55,499 bases of DNA, taken from a virus (taxonomy: Duplodnaviria; Caudoviricetes). The stretch spans positions 1 through 55,499 of IMG/VR virus record IMGVR_UViG_3300013094_000003; one strand, written 5' to 3'. Every line of letters starts with the position of its first letter. Position 1 is the stretch's first letter. Made by a program: the position numbers and the translations under genes. Below the pieces are notes generated by a model. It searched no databases, had not been told where the DNA came from, and worked only from the letters and a program-made list of their open reading frames with translations. Of this stretch, positions 1 through 55,499 are shown piece after piece.

Positions 1-20
1 AACAGCTAGGACAAACTTAG
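1..20 (+). repeat. Terminal overlap identical to 55480-55499 (circular closure)
   Basis: aacagctaggacaaacttag at both ends. Confidence 0.97.
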
Positions 21-1978
21 GATTAACGGCAATAGCGACTCAAAGTGTTACTAACAATTCGGTATTAGTAGGCGGTTCATCAAACTCTATTCAATCGATT
101 GCTCTTACGAATGGTCAATTATTGATAGGTTCTACTGGTACTACACCGGTTGCTGCTGTTCCTACTAATGGAACAAATATCAGCTGGACAACGGGAGCAG
201 GTAGTTTAACTGCAAATATTAGTGGGCAAATTGGGTTATCTAATGGAGGAACTGGGTTAAGTTCGACAACGGCTTACGGAGTTTTGTGTGGTGGAACAAC
301 AAATACCAGTGCTTTACAAAATGCGGGAAGTGGGACATCAGGACAAGTTTTAACCTCAAATGGAACTGCTGCTTTACCTATTTGGCAAAGTATTACAAGT
401 GCGGGAGGAGCACCAAATACTGCTACATATATTATACAAACTGCAAATACTTCATTAACTAATGCACAAGTTTTGGGGTCTTTAAGTACAGGGTTACTAA
501 AAAACACGACAAGCACTGGCGTTTTAACAATAGGAATAGCTGGAACGGATTACTATAGTCCAGGTAATCCTACAACTATAAAAGATGATGGTAATAATTT
601 TTTTATAGGAACAAATTCAGGAATTGTAGGCTTAACTGGAATTAATAATACAGGGATAGGGGACTCTTCTTTAAATAATTTAACTTCTGGAAATTTTAAT
701 ACTGCCGTTGGTTCAAGGATTTTAGGTGCTAATACGACAGGTAGTAATAATATAGGGATTGGATATAGGTCTTTATATTCTAATGTTAGTGGGATTCATA
801 ATACCTCCGCCGGGTCAAATTCCTTATATAATAATCAATCTGGGCAAGACAATACAGCATTTGGGTATAATGCTTTAAATAAAACATTGGAATCTTGTAA
901 CACCGCAATTGGATCTTCTGCTTTATATTCTAATATAACTGGTACTTCTAATTTTGCAGGAGGGTACAATAGCTTGTCCTCACTTACTTCCGGGACTCAA
1001 AATGTTGCTGTTGGTGTTAGTGCAGGCTCAGCATATACTACTTATAATCAGTGTACATTTATTGGATGCAGCACAGATGCTTCCGTTACTGGTTTAACTA
1101 ATGCGACAGCGATTGGTTATAACGCAACTGTGTCGGTTTCTAATTCAATGGTTTTAGGAAATGGTGTTAATGTAGGAATCAATCAGGCGTCTCCTGCTTA
1201 TCCATTACACATAAGTAATGTTAGTAATATTTCAGCATTATATTTAGAAGCAACAACAAGTACTCCATCTATTCCTGCGTCTGGTGGATTGATGTATACA
1301 AGTGGTGGCGAGCTTTACTACAAAGGTAATTCTAAAACAGTTAGTTTAACTGCTGCAACACCTGCGCCTAATACTGCAACGTATATTGTTCAGACTTCCA
1401 ATTCTACTTTAACTAATGAACAAGTTTTGGGATCTTTAAGTACAGGATTATTAAAAAACACCACGACTACAGGCGTTTTAAGTATAGCTACCGCTGGTAT
1501 TGATTATTATGTACCGGGAAACTCATTACCACAACAAACTCAATTGCTTGGACGTTGTATGCTTTCTAGTTCTAATACGACGATAACAACAACTAATAAT
1601 ACTTGGACTACTTTAGCTTTTAATGGAACAAACCAAACAACGTATGATCCAAGTAATTGGCATAGCAATACTACAAATAATACTCGGATAACTCCAGGAG
1701 TTGTTGGAACTTATAGGCTAATTGGTTCGTTGAGGTACAATAATAATGGAAGCGGTGTAACCTGCGGAGTAGGATTTGGAATAAATGGTGCTTCTCCCAC
1801 TAATGATATACAAGGATGGTTTACTCGTGATTCTTCTACAGGAAGAAGAAGTGCTGCTTTTTCTTGTATTATTACTACTACTGCCACTACTGACTATTTT
1901 GAAATGTGCGGGAACCAAGATAGCGGCGGAGCTTTAGGTCTACAAGGTTTTCATTTTCAAGTAGAAAGATTAGTTTAA
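1..1978 (+). CDS. Tail fibre, C-terminal part (gene starts at 53303 and crosses the junction; about 1384 aa in total)
   Basis: Frame from base 2 reads TARTNLGLTAIATQ... without stops into the 122..1978 ORF; YadA-head-like N-x-A-I-G repeats; C-terminal C1q/BclA-like tip. Confidence 0.9.
   Translation, partial: TARTNLGLTAIATQSVTNNSVLVGGSSNSIQSIALTNGQLLIGSTGTTPVAAVPTNGTNISWTTGAGSLTANISGQIGLSNGGTGLSSTTAYGVLCGGTTNTSALQNAGSGTSGQVLTSNGTAALPIWQSITSAGGAPNTATYIIQTANTSLTNAQVLGSLSTGLLKNTTSTGVLTIGIAGTDYYSPGNPTTIKDDGNNFFIGTNSGIVGLTGINNTGIGDSSLNNLTSGNFNTAVGSRILGANTTGSNNIGIGYRSLYSNVSGIHNTSAGSNSLYNNQSGQDNTAFGYNALNKTLESCNTAIGSSALYSNITGTSNFAGGYNSLSSLTSGTQNVAVGVSAGSAYTTYNQCTFIGCSTDASVTGLTNATAIGYNATVSVSNSMVLGNGVNVGINQASPAYPLHISNVSNISALYLEATTSTPSIPASGGLMYTSGGELYYKGNSKTVSLTAATPAPNTATYIVQTSNSTLTNEQVLGSLSTGLLKNTTTTGVLSIATAGIDYYVPGNSLPQQTQLLGRCMLSSSNTTITTTNNTWTTLAFNGTNQTTYDPSNWHSNTTNNTRITPGVVGTYRLIGSLRYNNNGSGVTCGVGFGINGASPTNDIQGWFTRDSSTGRRSAAFSCIITTTATTDYFEMCGNQDSGGALGLQGFHFQVERLV
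409..596 (+). repeat. Fibre cassette flank A, near-identical to 54340-54527
   Basis: 188 nt with 5 synonymous differences by eye (APNTATYIIQ...IKDDGN). Confidence 0.93.
1154..1355 (+). repeat. Fibre cassette flank B, near-identical to 55145-55346
   Basis: 202 nt, about 8 differences (LGNGVNVGINQ...TVSLTA). Confidence 0.93.
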
Positions 1979-1982
1979 ACAA
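1550..1982 (+). repeat. C1q-like tip-domain DNA duplicated at 3613-4045
   Basis: Colinear 433-nt copies; identical first ~30 and last ~44 nt; diverged middle. Confidence 0.93.
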
Positions 1983-53299: not shown

Positions 53300-53302
53300 G
53301 TA

Positions 53303-55499
53303 ATGAGTAATAATTTTAATCCAGGATTTGACAGAGAAAAAGCAGCGTTTCTAGAACTAGCTAATAGAGGAGATGGTCTGACTCCAATTGACTATTTATA
53401 TGCAAAAGAAGCTAGTTTTGGAAGCGTATTATCTTCTGCTATTACCGGTGGAACGGCCGAGTTTTATACAATATATGTAAATGGAATTGAGTCTTCCAAT
53501 ATTACTAACAGTAATGATATTATCACTAACAGCTTAAAGTTGAGGAATCAGTTAAATGATTATTATGTTGGCTTTACTGCCGGTAGCTTGACTCAAAGTA
53601 CAATCTGGAGCTTACCATTACAGGATGGAACTGATGGGCAGGTACTTGCTACAAACGGCAATCGTATTCTATCGTTTATAGATGCTGGCGGAGGAGGTGA
53701 AGGTGCACCAAAGGATGCTACTTATATTATTAGGCAAGAAAATGAAGCTTTAACTAATGCCCAAGTATTAAGTTCACTTGAAACGGGAATCGCTAAAATT
53801 GAAACAGATGGATATATCGCTATTGCTGTTCCAGATGTCGATTATGCAACTGTTGAAACATTAGAAGAGTTAGCAGCAGAAGCTGAGGCTAGTGCAGAAG
53901 CTGCTGCAACTTCTGCTACAGAGGCTACGGGAGCTGCAGCAGAAGCAACAGGAGCTGCCAGCGAAGCTAGTGTTTCAGCAATAGCTTCTTCTGCCTCAGC
54001 AGCAGCGGCAGCAGCTTCTGCTGCAGCTGCCTCTGACTATAGTGATAAGGCATACGAATATAAGGAAAAAGCCAGAGAATATAAAAATGATGCTTTTGAT
54101 TATAAAGAATCAGCATCTAACTCTGCAAGTAGTGCTTCTAGTTCTGCTTCAAATGCCTCGTCAAGTGCATCTGAAGCTCATACTTATTTAGAAACACTAC
54201 TTTCTACAGGATTAAATCAGCTTCCTAATAGTGGTGATGTAGACATCAATAATTATAAAATTATTAATTTAGCAAATGGTGTTTCTGGAACAGATGCCGT
54301 AAATGTTAATCAATTGAGTTCTGCAATTTCCGGTTCAGCAGCACCAAATACTGCTACATATATTATACAAACTGCAAATACTTCATTAACAAATGCACAA
54401 GTTTTGGGGTCTTTAAGTACAGGGTTACTAAAGAACACGACAAGTACTGGTGTTCTAACAATAGGAATAGCTGGAACGGATTACTATAGTCCAGGTAATC
54501 CTACAACTATAAAAGATGATGGTAATAGCCTATTTATCGGAGCTAATACCGGCCTTCTTTCTCCTGCGGGATACAGTAATTTAGGTATTGGTTCATATGC
54601 ATTAAATTCATTAAGTACTAGCACTTCAGGAGATGCCAATATAGCATTAGGATATGGTGCTCTTAATTTAAATACAGATGGTTTTAATAATATTGCAATA
54701 GGCCAATATAGCTTACCTTCAAATACTATTGGTCATCTTAATATAGGAATTGGTGCTAATAGTCTTAATAATAATACAACTGGTTTTAATAATATTGCAA
54801 TAGGAGATTCCTGCTTAAAAGTAAATACTACGGGAAATTGCAATATTGGAATTGGTTATCTCGTCTTAAATACTAACTTTACAGGAAGTTATAACATTGG
54901 AATTGGCGATGGTTCTTTACTGGGAAGTGGATCTAGAAGTGTAGCTATCGGATATCAAGCTTTACAAGCTTCCATCTTAAACGACTGTACTGCAATAGGA
55001 TACCAGGCCGGCTACAATACTACGTATTATGGTGCTAACGAATGCGTTTTTATAGGTTCAGGAACAACTATTGGGGCAAATAACCTAACGAATGCGATAG
55101 CGATTGGTTACAACTCTACAATTGGTGTTTCTAATGCGATGCGATTAGGAAATGGTGTGAATGTAGGAATCAATCAGGCATCACCAGCTTATCCATTACA
55201 CATAAGCAATGTTAATAACATTTCAGCATTATATTTAGAAGCAACAACAAGTACTCCATCTATTCCTGCGTCTGGTGGATTGATGTATACAAGTGGCGGC
55301 GAGCTTTACTACAAAGGTAATTCTAAAACAGTTAGTTTAACTGCTGTTAGCGGCGTTACTGCTGGCAGTTATACGAATGCTAGTATTACGGTAAATGCAC
55401 AAGGGCAATTAACGGCAGCAAGTAGTGGCGCAACTCCATTATTAGTTAGCAATAATTTATCAGATTTAAACAATGCAGCAACAGCTAGGACAAACTTAG
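53303..55499 (+). CDS. Tail fibre, N-terminal part (missing from the ORF track; continues at base 1)
   Basis: Open from ATG 53303; Ala/Ser-rich coil, YadA-neck-like KIINLANGVSGTDAVNVNQL, head repeats, NNLSDLNNAATARTNLG. Confidence 0.9.
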   Translation, partial: MSNNFNPGFDREKAAFLELANRGDGLTPIDYLYAKEASFGSVLSSAITGGTAEFYTIYVNGIESSNITNSNDIITNSLKLRNQLNDYYVGFTAGSLTQSTIWSLPLQDGTDGQVLATNGNRILSFIDAGGGGEGAPKDATYIIRQENEALTNAQVLSSLETGIAKIETDGYIAIAVPDVDYATVETLEELAAEAEASAEAAATSATEATGAAAEATGAASEASVSAIASSASAAAAAASAAAASDYSDKAYEYKEKAREYKNDAFDYKESASNSASSASSSASNASSSASEAHTYLETLLSTGLNQLPNSGDVDINNYKIINLANGVSGTDAVNVNQLSSAISGSAAPNTATYIIQTANTSLTNAQVLGSLSTGLLKNTTSTGVLTIGIAGTDYYSPGNPTTIKDDGNSLFIGANTGLLSPAGYSNLGIGSYALNSLSTSTSGDANIALGYGALNLNTDGFNNIAIGQYSLPSNTIGHLNIGIGANSLNNNTTGFNNIAIGDSCLKVNTTGNCNIGIGYLVLNTNFTGSYNIGIGDGSLLGSGSRSVAIGYQALQASILNDCTAIGYQAGYNTTYYGANECVFIGSGTTIGANNLTNAIAIGYNSTIGVSNAMRLGNGVNVGINQASPAYPLHISNVNNISALYLEATTSTPSIPASGGLMYTSGGELYYKGNSKTVSLTAVSGVTAGSYTNASITVNAQGQLTAASSGATPLLVSNNLSDLNNAATARTNL

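Follow-up and report, generated by a model that had tools for sequence, protein, structure and literature searches.

An integrase-free tailed-phage genome probably maintained as a circular plasmid in Megaira-type Rickettsiaceae

Is the viral record IMGVR_UViG_3300013094_000003 a phage, a plasmid, or both, and in which bacterium does it reside? The record, taken from IMG/VR and analyzed over its whole length of 55,499 nt (hereafter, the window), carries the genes of a tailed-phage particle together with genes of the kind that secure stable inheritance. P1-type phage-plasmids have an initiator, a ParA-type partition system, a dimer-resolving recombinase, and an addiction module next to a full virion set, and they do not integrate. 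In our assessment, the window is probably the whole genome of an integrase-free temperate tailed phage that is kept as a low-copy circular plasmid in Rickettsiaceae of the Megaira type. Candidatus Megaira is a rickettsial (Rickettsiaceae) symbiont that lives inside ciliates and algae. The first-pass annotation had described the window as a phage-plasmid, and the analysis bears this out: a virion module under selection stands beside ParA, a resolvase, toxin–antitoxin genes, and a candidate initiator, no integrase was recognized, and the map is circular. Of the marks by which phage-plasmids are judged, packaging and virion genes are present, and so is a partition gene.

The first and last 20 bases of the window are identical, which gives a unit length of 55,479 bp. 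Across this junction, the tail-fiber open reading frame (ORF), 53303..55479 joined to 1..1978, is a single open frame of 1384 codons with its sole stop at the end. The Candidatus Megaera polyxenophila plasmids CP113869.1 and AP017967.1 and the Rickettsiales contig C62 are all collinear with the window across the junction position, and the spacing from the N terminus of the tail fiber to the patatin gene is 3.9–4.2 kb in these relatives versus 3.8 kb in the window. Because the three relatives are continuous over the junction and have similar gaps, no large piece has been lost there and the map is circular, in agreement with the circular closure claimed earlier, although one repeat unit could have collapsed at the junction. 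The tail-fiber gene contains exact internal repeats of 41–77 bp, and some repeats are common to 1..1978 and 54337–55346. CheckV estimated the completeness of the record at 100%. No joints were reported among the sequencing contigs aligned to 35500–55499, the last 20 kb of the window. The absence of an integrase and the AT-rich composition, both noted in the first-pass annotation, were also upheld: the tyrosine integrase domain PF00589 gave 0 matches in the six frames of the window with a positive control that found it in 14/14 genomes, and GC ranges from 0.25 to 0.39 per 2-kb segment throughout.

The packaging, virion, and lysis genes recognized in the window, with matches to PHROG and Pfam families and lengths in amino acids (aa), are as follows.
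34889..35476 (+): small-terminase-like protein (phrog_309, E 1.3e-9)
40992..44977 (+): large terminase (TerL, 40992–42626) and portal protein (42626–44977); phrog_38, E 1e-73, and phrog_1216
45360..48743 (+): GroES-like protein and four head-assembly ORFs (phrog_3188); conserved, with nonsynonymous to synonymous substitution ratios (dN/dS) of 0.04–0.21
49033..53299 (+): capsid protein (49962–50891) and neighbors, including a discoidin-domain adaptor-like protein (weak F5_F8_type_C and SU10_adaptor matches)
53303..55499 (+): tail fiber, N-terminal part (PHROG tail spike/tail fiber families; weak YadA_stalk and T7 tail-fiber N-terminal matches)
1..1978 (+): tail fiber, C-terminal part (PHROG; internal repeats also in 54337–55346)
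3172..4041 (+): chimeric 289-aa ORF, the N-terminal half of which is a paralogue of the 144-aa ORF at 4332–4766
4332..7407 (+): tail/virion structural proteins of 144, 219, 560, and 94 aa (phrog_2941, phrog_10775, and phrog_3287; 64–84% identity in relatives)
7425..7919 (+): endolysin with GH108 and PG_binding_3 domains (PHROG and Pfam; only in the window among seven elements compared)
7923..8225 (+): DUF1064 protein, labeled Holliday junction resolvase in PHROG (window only among the seven elements)
8232..8420 (+): 62-aa protein with a single transmembrane segment at its N terminus (homologues in genomes G133, G135, and G136)
8777..16240 (−): four large ORFs of 748, 319, 772, and 640 aa (no Pfam match)

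Selection was estimated by comparing the window genes with those of six relatives, keeping pairs with at least 70% coverage and at least 55% identity and leaving out those with saturated dS or dS >3. The 153 gene pairs kept had a median dN/dS of 0.16 and a maximum of 0.62, and the TerL, portal, and capsid genes had values of 0.07–0.12 at dS of 0.4–2.1. In addition, all virion genes of the window are full length compared with their homologues (coverage of 92–100%). Under purifying selection and with all of its genes intact, the virion module has, as far as its sequence can tell, the look of a working particle-forming module.

The capsid protein itself has no Pfam or PHROG match; it is 36% and 35% identical to the annotated Mu gpT-like capsid proteins of pBealeia1, a plasmid of a Paramecium symbiont, and of the roseophage CRP-902, respectively, over 95–98% of its length, and its wider homologues carry PF25209 and PF10124. 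No sheath or tube family was recognized in the window, and the tape-measure families are represented by one weak PHROG match, at the C terminus of the 640-aa ORF. The weak T7 tail-fiber and SU10 adaptor matches hint at a short-tailed particle, which is a guess. The four large minus-strand ORFs are partly conserved, with dN/dS of 0.10–0.45, and from their position and size we infer that they encode internal or ejection virion proteins. The C-terminal 434 nt of the 289-aa ORF share 81% DNA identity with the C terminus of the tail fiber (1549–1982), and this chimeric ORF may provide a second receptor-binding tip. A resolvase-driven inversion switch of the tail fiber was considered and rejected, as the duplicated fiber segments are arranged as direct repeats at a large distance from the recombinase. 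The small-terminase-like gene is separated from TerL, which lies downstream, by 5.5 kb that hold ParA, toxin–antitoxin genes, a leucine-rich-repeat (LRR) protein gene, and a porin remnant; the same split between small and large terminase is found in CP113869.1, where the gap is ~15 kb.

The second set of genes is of the plasmid type and includes helix-turn-helix (HTH) and ribbon-helix-helix (RHH) proteins.
36046..36863 (+): ParA ATPase of 207 aa and a 65-aa partner (AAA_31, CbiA, and VirC1 matches)
37093..37591 (+): ParD-like RHH antitoxin and ParE toxin (PF05016, E 1.3e-13; RHH matches below the cut-off)
23679..24290 (−): small serine recombinase, a resolvase (PF00239, E 5e-43; 93–98% identity in G133, G135, and G136)
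20176..21216 (+): 346-aa winged-helix protein, the candidate initiator (65–76% identity in 6/6 relatives; dN/dS of 0.19–0.24)
29985..31838 (+): 617-aa protein with an N-terminal HTH_36/DeoR HTH (Pfam)
24724..24855 (+): iteron-like repeat of 19–20 bp, four copies in two tandem pairs within a 1.1-kb non-coding stretch
25215..25385 (+): structured RNA element of 171 nt, directly upstream of a 96-aa ORF and conserved in three relatives
25384..26568 (+): 96-aa and 291-aa ORFs (homologues in relatives; no Pfam match for the 291-aa ORF)
21583..22752 (−): 299-aa protein and an 88-aa Cas2/VapD-like protein (PF09827, E 2.3e-4, below the cut-off)

The partition ATPase, a type-I ParA, was matched in Pfam with E 9.5e-29, and its small partner gene is co-oriented. 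The earlier ParA/RHH assignment therefore stands for ParA, and since the 65-aa partner has no Pfam match at E ≤ 0.01, its RHH label is taken from a sequence pattern alone. The resolvase and the toxin–antitoxin genes, the latter as ParE with an RHH-like partner, were found as previously described. The ParA module is 98% and 88–89% identical in CP113869.1, G133, and G135 (ParA, 98% to CP113869.1), and other ParA types occur elsewhere. Ten of the eleven IMG/VR relatives of at least 44 kb were examined for this gene, and a ParA-type match (E ≤ 1e-3) was present in nine of the ten: five were 85–98% identical to the ParA of the window, and four, at 31–50% identity, therefore belong to other ParA types, although two of these four matches are weak and partial. 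Overall, the ParA genes fall into at least three sequence types. The Cas2/VapD-like gene has an 84% identical counterpart in G136 only, and its 299-aa partner belongs to no known family; the two genes may form a toxin–antitoxin or defense pair.

The host can be approached through the relatives. CP113869.1 is a closed circular plasmid of 64,423 bp from Candidatus Megaera polyxenophila strain NDG2, obtained from Euplotes woodruffi, and AP017967.1 (pPCS109) is a closed plasmid of 109,307 bp from Candidatus Megaera polyxenophila strain PCS. The NDG2 genome was obtained from the Euplotes culture by hybrid assembly of Illumina and Nanopore data (PMC10847448). CP113869.1 has the same gene order as the window and aligns with it in 19 collinear blocks at 67–93% nucleotide identity, and 37 of the 65 window proteins compared with the six relatives match it. 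The portal protein is 88% identical to that of CP113869.1 and 86% identical to that of AP017967.1 (about 86–89% overall); TerL is 89%, the capsid protein 93%, and patatin 87–88% identical to the Megaera plasmid proteins. Contig C62 (62,691 bp) of the metagenome-assembled genome (MAG) "MAG: Rickettsiales bacterium AWTP1-34" (genome G001) is equally close, and its aligned blocks cover 44% of the window; with this contig included, portal, terminase, and capsid identities are 86–93%. The named relatives above 80% identity are Megaera polyxenophila, a Rickettsiaceae MAG, and a Rickettsiales MAG only.

The host is thus supported as a Rickettsiaceae of the Megaira type by its relatives, and the Rickettsiaceae-like host proposed in the first-pass annotation agrees with the closest named relatives, the Megaera polyxenophila plasmids and the Rickettsiales MAG contig. 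The individual host cues put forward then fared unevenly and are weaker than the evidence from the relatives: the major facilitator superfamily (MFS) transporter, the porin, and the AT-richness stand, but the window lacks the DnaA_N "Rep motif".

Genes for terminase, portal, GroES-like, head, capsid, and tail proteins, patatin, the cold-shock protein Csp, and the 346-aa and 227-aa proteins are conserved in 6/6 relatives; five of the six also have the methylase and, in most cases, the MFS gene. The recombination genes, the ParA type, the toxin–antitoxin genes, the endolysin, and the LRR protein are swappable modules. In IMG/VR, 73 distinct further loci encode a portal protein 50–94% identical to that of the window (83 pattern matches, 76 confirmed), and the capsid-protein cluster has 342 members. 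The records deposited as Megaira "plasmids" thus seem to belong to a single large phage-plasmid family that is under selection and common in the environment, which suggests that their annotation should be revised.

The observations that weigh against a phage-plasmid of Megaira concern the form of the molecule, the initiator, lysis, and the host. With regard to form, the 20-bp overlap taken by itself is weak evidence of circularity, being short and located in a repeat-rich tail-fiber gene. IMG/VR classifies the record as "linear", and a circular map is equally expected from a circularly permuted, headful-packaged linear genome. Sequencing contigs of three runs extend 205 nt beyond the window end, which shows only that the molecule continues there, and no internal exact repeat accounts for contigs ending at this point.

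These features would also fit an ordinary virulent or pseudolysogenic phage whose circular map reflects terminal redundancy and whose ParA, resolvase, and toxin–antitoxin genes serve phage replication or defense. A circular map alone does not prove a plasmid state, the IMG/VR class is viral and linear, and the initiator is only a candidate. However, the relatives were recovered as closed plasmids in assemblies of ciliate cultures bearing the symbiont and were annotated as bacterial replicons, the ParA types have diversified among them as plasmid incompatibility would predict, and a resolvase with toxin–antitoxin genes is a typical stable-inheritance set. We therefore consider an ordinary phage very unlikely.

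With regard to the initiator, the 346-aa protein belongs to a large family, with 716 homologues at E ≤ 1e-3 in a collection clustered at 90% identity and 331 representative clusters in a 50%-identity library. The named ones come from Megaera polyxenophila, a Rickettsiaceae MAG, Alphaproteobacteria MAGs, and one MAG labeled Paraclostridium sp. Residues 1–310 align with the N-terminal ~330 residues of DnaA_N-bearing plasmid proteins (E down to 1e-104). Among ten longer homologues scanned, a C-terminal DnaA_N domain was present in 8/10 and an N-terminal HTH of the HTH_36, DeoR, or RP-C type in 3/10; this architecture of HTH and DnaA_N is what is annotated as "DnaA-like" on Megaira plasmids. A six-frame search of the window at E ≤ 1 gave 0 matches to the DnaA_N domain (PF11638), with a control that found it in 11/14 genomes.

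The AlphaFold model of the 346-aa protein has a mean predicted local distance difference test score of 72.4 and a predicted template modeling score of 0.39, with confident blocks at ~60–135 and 217–290, and it predicts a winged-helix domain at residues 55–135. Fold searches with this model returned only generic winged-helix matches, the best having Z 7.1 to unrelated proteins and Foldseek E >0.1. Solved Rep entries (8ac8, 8aan, and RepE54) appeared only amid many such matches, at Foldseek E of 0.5–1.1. Likewise, a PDB sequence search matched only the DnaA_N part supplied by the longer homologues. Because the 346-aa protein ends before DnaA_N and shows only a generic winged-helix fold, its role as plasmid replication initiator, assigned by homology, is plausible but unproven. 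The Rep gene reported in the first-pass annotation is accordingly retained in part: the homology to the N-terminal body of rickettsial-plasmid "DnaA-like" proteins holds, DnaA_N is missing from the window, and the Rep role is taken from homology only. The 617-aa protein matches three plasmids in the plasmid collection, all from Megaera polyxenophila and two of them annotated as DnaA-like, and it has no detectable similarity to the 346-aa protein. In PDB, no sequence match was found for the 617-aa ORF and none below E 0.46 for the 291-aa ORF.

Lysis is the weak point of the virion module. No holin family was recognized in the window, where the only small transmembrane ORFs are at 8232–8420 and 35469–35678; the first of these encodes the 62-aa protein, a candidate lysis accessory protein. 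The GH108 endolysin had no tblastn match in the six relatives compared, and this absence is taken from tblastn because the control of the GH108 family search of the relatives was silent. The genes that flank the endolysin and DUF1064 genes in the window adjoin directly in 2/6 relatives. The intact virion and lysis module claimed for the window therefore needs to be divided: its head, packaging, and tail genes are full length and selected and GH108 is present, but a holin is not recognizable.

An endolysin missing from the relatives raises the possibility of a plasmid of phage origin that has lost the ability to form infectious virions. Such an element, defective or domesticated, would be passed on mainly vertically; one example would be a particle or effector-delivery device comparable to the phage-linked R-body elements of Paramecium symbionts. 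An obligately intracellular host would limit infection from outside. In AP017967.1, the phage module is interrupted and lies inside the 109 kb plasmid amid many transposase genes, and the distant relative pBealeia1 combines RebB R-body genes with a head module of this kind. A link of R-body determinants with plasmids and phage particles has been reported (PMC11909080). Against this stand the full length of every virion gene of the window, the strong and uniform selection on these genes, the near-identical copies in sequencing runs of different studies, the wide spread indicated by the 73 IMG/VR loci, and the endolysin that the window does encode, which together make a defective plasmid unlikely.

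With regard to the host, the assignment comes from the relatives, and the capsid gene was found in only 1/131 species-representative genomes of the GTDB family of G001, so carriage is patchy. Could the element instead belong to another AT-rich protist endosymbiont, such as one of the Holosporales or Midichloriaceae? A related head module is carried by a plasmid of Candidatus Bealeia paramacronuclearis (portal, 35%; capsid, 36%), capsid homologues at 45–75% identity occur on other contigs of 50–66 kb, and the endolysin and LRR protein have no Rickettsiales matches in the plasmid collection. However, all named relatives above 80% identity are Megaera polyxenophila or Rickettsiaceae or Rickettsiales MAGs, and the maintenance proteins match Megaera plasmids only, so that a host outside the Rickettsiaceae is highly improbable. 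The best plasmid-collection matches of the endolysin and the LRR protein are to unrelated bacteria outside the Rickettsiales at 28–36% identity, which is uninformative either way. Capsid homologues at 45–75% identity lie on many contigs of 50–66 kb, and similar-sized elements may exist in other hosts.

If the window is a Megaira phage-plasmid, its life cycle could proceed as follows. The 346-aa winged-helix protein, perhaps with the 617-aa HTH protein, would initiate replication of the plasmid, for which the iteron-like repeats nearby are a possible site. ParA and its 65-aa partner would segregate the copies, the resolvase would resolve dimers, and the toxin–antitoxin genes would kill cells that lose the element. 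Upon induction, the terminase would package the DNA into gpT-type capsids with a short tail, and the GH108 endolysin would open the bacterial wall. The conserved cargo (patatin, MFS transporter, porin, Csp, and LRR protein) might serve the bacterium inside the eukaryotic cell or the exit of the phage from that cell.

The iteron-like repeat has 4 matches versus 0.11 expected by chance, and its region is kept in three relatives. The first-pass annotation had also proposed a counter-transcribed RNA (ctRNA) next to Rep, and this proposal was not upheld. Rfam gave 0 matches at the gathering score over the whole window and 0 at E ≤ 1 over 19300–30100, and the sole structured element found, at 25215–25385, prefers the sense strand. 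Its folding z score is −4.31 on the plus strand versus −2.67 on the minus strand, and 5 of its 46 predicted pairs show compensatory changes among four sequences, two of which are nearly the same; several G-U pairs are invariant. Because invariant G-U pairs are impossible on the opposite strand and the plus strand folds more strongly, a sense-strand leader is favored over an antisense ctRNA. The 96-aa and 291-aa ORFs downstream are possibly a second replication or regulatory module.

Compared with its closest relatives, the window shares gene order and the methylase with CP113869.1 and AP017967.1, and the 346-aa protein (66%), Csp, and the MFS transporter are found in CP113869.1. The window differs from these two plasmids by the GH108 endolysin and DUF1064 genes, the ParDE pair, the LRR protein, a single-strand DNA-binding protein (SSB), the 617-aa HTH protein, and a truncated porin. 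CP113869.1 in turn has group II introns, insertion sequence (IS) elements, and GTPase genes that the window lacks. Both records are annotated as plasmids, with most of their virion genes labeled "hypothetical". Among the main texts searched on Megaira and Rickettsiales phages and plasmids, none was found that calls the Megaira plasmids phage-plasmids.

The earlier statement that phages are rarely described in Rickettsiaceae needs a qualifier, since MAnkyphage, a phage of Megaira polyxenophila in Cryptomonas, was published in 2023 (George et al. 2023, Curr Biol) and is mentioned in PMC10925606. MAnkyphage may or may not belong to the same family as the window. It reportedly carries toxin–antitoxin systems and eukaryote-like proteins. 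Family members in public databases and a phage of the same host genus are thus already known.

The window had no blastn DNA match in the phage collection, and no record there exceeded 41% TerL identity. The roseophages CRP-901 and CRP-902 have TerL proteins 40–41% identical to that of the window (CRP-902, 41%), a portal protein at 28%, and a capsid protein at 35%. CRP-902 shares the order TerL–portal–GroES–capsid–tail fiber as well as a long tail-fiber gene followed by several very large ORFs. Unlike the window, it has its own primase-polymerase and helicase, no annotated ParA, resolvase, or toxin–antitoxin genes, and a marine free-living host. By their sequences, CRP-901-type roseophages are a related lineage and, having no blastn match, not of the same genus as the window; the pelagiphage HTVC027P is a more distant relative than CRP-901 and CRP-902.

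A further relative is pBealeia1 (NZ_CP133271.1), a circular plasmid of 57,518 bp from Candidatus Bealeia paramacronuclearis, which has portal (35%), GroES-like (34%), capsid (36%), and adjoining head genes in the same order and YqaJ. It differs in its Holosporales host and in encoding six RebB proteins of R bodies together with a RecD-like helicase and a PriCT-2 protein; the ParA, 346-aa protein, and patatin of the window find no match in it. The RebB genes and head module of this Paramecium symbiont plasmid lie in the regions 2344–4635 and 30825–39255, and pBealeia1 looks like a phage-plasmid bearing R-body genes. The analogy to P1 is a functional one: the window has no recognizable P1 genes and differs in having a serine resolvase instead of Cre, a gpT-type head, and another initiator family.

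The cargo genes are as follows.
1993..3087 (+): patatin-like phospholipase (PF01734, E 1.1e-21), within the tail gene block; 35–88% identity in 6/6 relatives
8526..8732 (−): cold-shock domain protein Csp (PF00313, E 1.6e-18); 41–85% identity in 6/6 relatives
27434..29143 (−): ProP-like MFS transporter with a C-terminal extension; 42–60% identity in 5/6 relatives
37658..38599 (−): eukaryote-type LRR protein (LRR_6, E 3.6e-18)
40661..40795 (−): porin gene remnant, signal peptide and first strand only; 67% identity to residues 14–58 of the CP113869.1 porin, E 1.6e-13

The patatin-like protein has the motifs GGGIRG at 13, GTSTG at 48, and IDGS...NNP near 217, corresponding to the oxyanion, GxSxG, and DG-type aspartate motifs, respectively, and is therefore predicted to be a phospholipase. 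Three cargo genes named in the first-pass annotation were recovered: Csp by its Pfam domain, the ProP-like MFS protein through best matches to transporters on Rickettsia and Megaira plasmids (40–45% identity), and the porin fragment as a truncated copy. The full-length porin (427 aa), located beside the terminase gene, is present in CP113869.1 and 4/5 other relatives tested, and ~58 codons of it are left in the window. The C-terminal ~110 residues of the MFS protein are a soluble extension that resembles a repeated motif of the adjoining 186-aa ORF (26605–27165, weak HTH_17), which is an unusual fusion for a transporter.

A bolder reading is that this family is the main horizontally mobile element of Megaira-type Rickettsiaceae, a still-infectious phage-plasmid with conserved in-module cargo used to cross or remodel eukaryotic membranes; we regard it as doubtful though not far-fetched. 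On this view, the patatin-like phospholipase encoded amid the tail genes, the porin beside the terminase gene, and the MFS transporter would make up that cargo. If this were true, a bacterial virus would be equipped to get into or out of a protist cell, and the element could serve as a natural shuttle vector for rickettsial bacteria that resist genetic manipulation. Genetic work on Rickettsiaceae is difficult, and few mobile elements are known to pass between them. The phage-plasmid reading itself makes the element a candidate for horizontal transfer among protist symbionts and a case of a phage that keeps eukaryote-directed genes within its structural module, with replication and partition modules as possible vector parts. 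The parts worth following are the family size, the conserved eukaryote-directed cargo, and the possible vector use.

The remaining genes concern recombination, regulation, and other DNA handling.
16342..18344 (−): YqaJ exonuclease, 88-aa membrane protein, Panacea-domain protein, and ERF annealase (window only among the seven elements)
18432..19851 (−): conserved proteins of 82 and 227 aa and a winged-helix regulator of the MarR type, divergent from the candidate initiator
32673..33026 (+): SSB (PF00436)
33691..34896 (+): ParB_N domain fused to an N6/N4 DNA methyltransferase (81–83% identity in 5/6 relatives)

The ERF, YqaJ, and Panacea genes take the place that is occupied by RecT and YqaJ in CP113869.1, and the Panacea-domain protein adjoins the 88-aa membrane protein. 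Two paralogous ORFs of ~81 aa, at 18432–18680 beside the conserved 227-aa gene and at 27182–27427 beside the MFS gene, both match one single gene in the relatives at 40–83% identity. At E ≤ 0.01, Pfam gave no match for the MFS gene, for the 346-, 291-, 299-, 375-, and 249-aa ORFs, or for the four large minus-strand ORFs.

Among the long IMG/VR relatives, 3/10 are assigned to the direct-terminal-repeat class with a completeness of 100%, and their measured end overlaps are 127, 21, and 120 bp. One IMG/VR contig of 50,378 bp (L041/L093) carries a complete portal gene near 43 kb and begins with a partial portal gene, an arrangement that points to a long terminal duplication or a concatemer-like assembly. 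In a biocathode-metagenome run from a different study, 95% of sampled words of the window-specific cargo region were present, and 42/46 contigs aligned to 35500–55499 at ≥99% identity to the window. No RNA run is listed among the sequencing runs that contain the element. Loose ends in run X4, at 37730 and 52233, were considered as chromosomal flanks and rejected; they are GC-rich, unlike the element, and are taken for assembly chimeras or unrelated organisms. Run X1 covers only 48.2–55.5 kb at full depth. In runs X1 and X2, the two probable source runs, contigs leave the window sequence at 35591/36717 and 38622/40214, which are module borders, and this suggests that mosaic variants of the element coexist in one sample.

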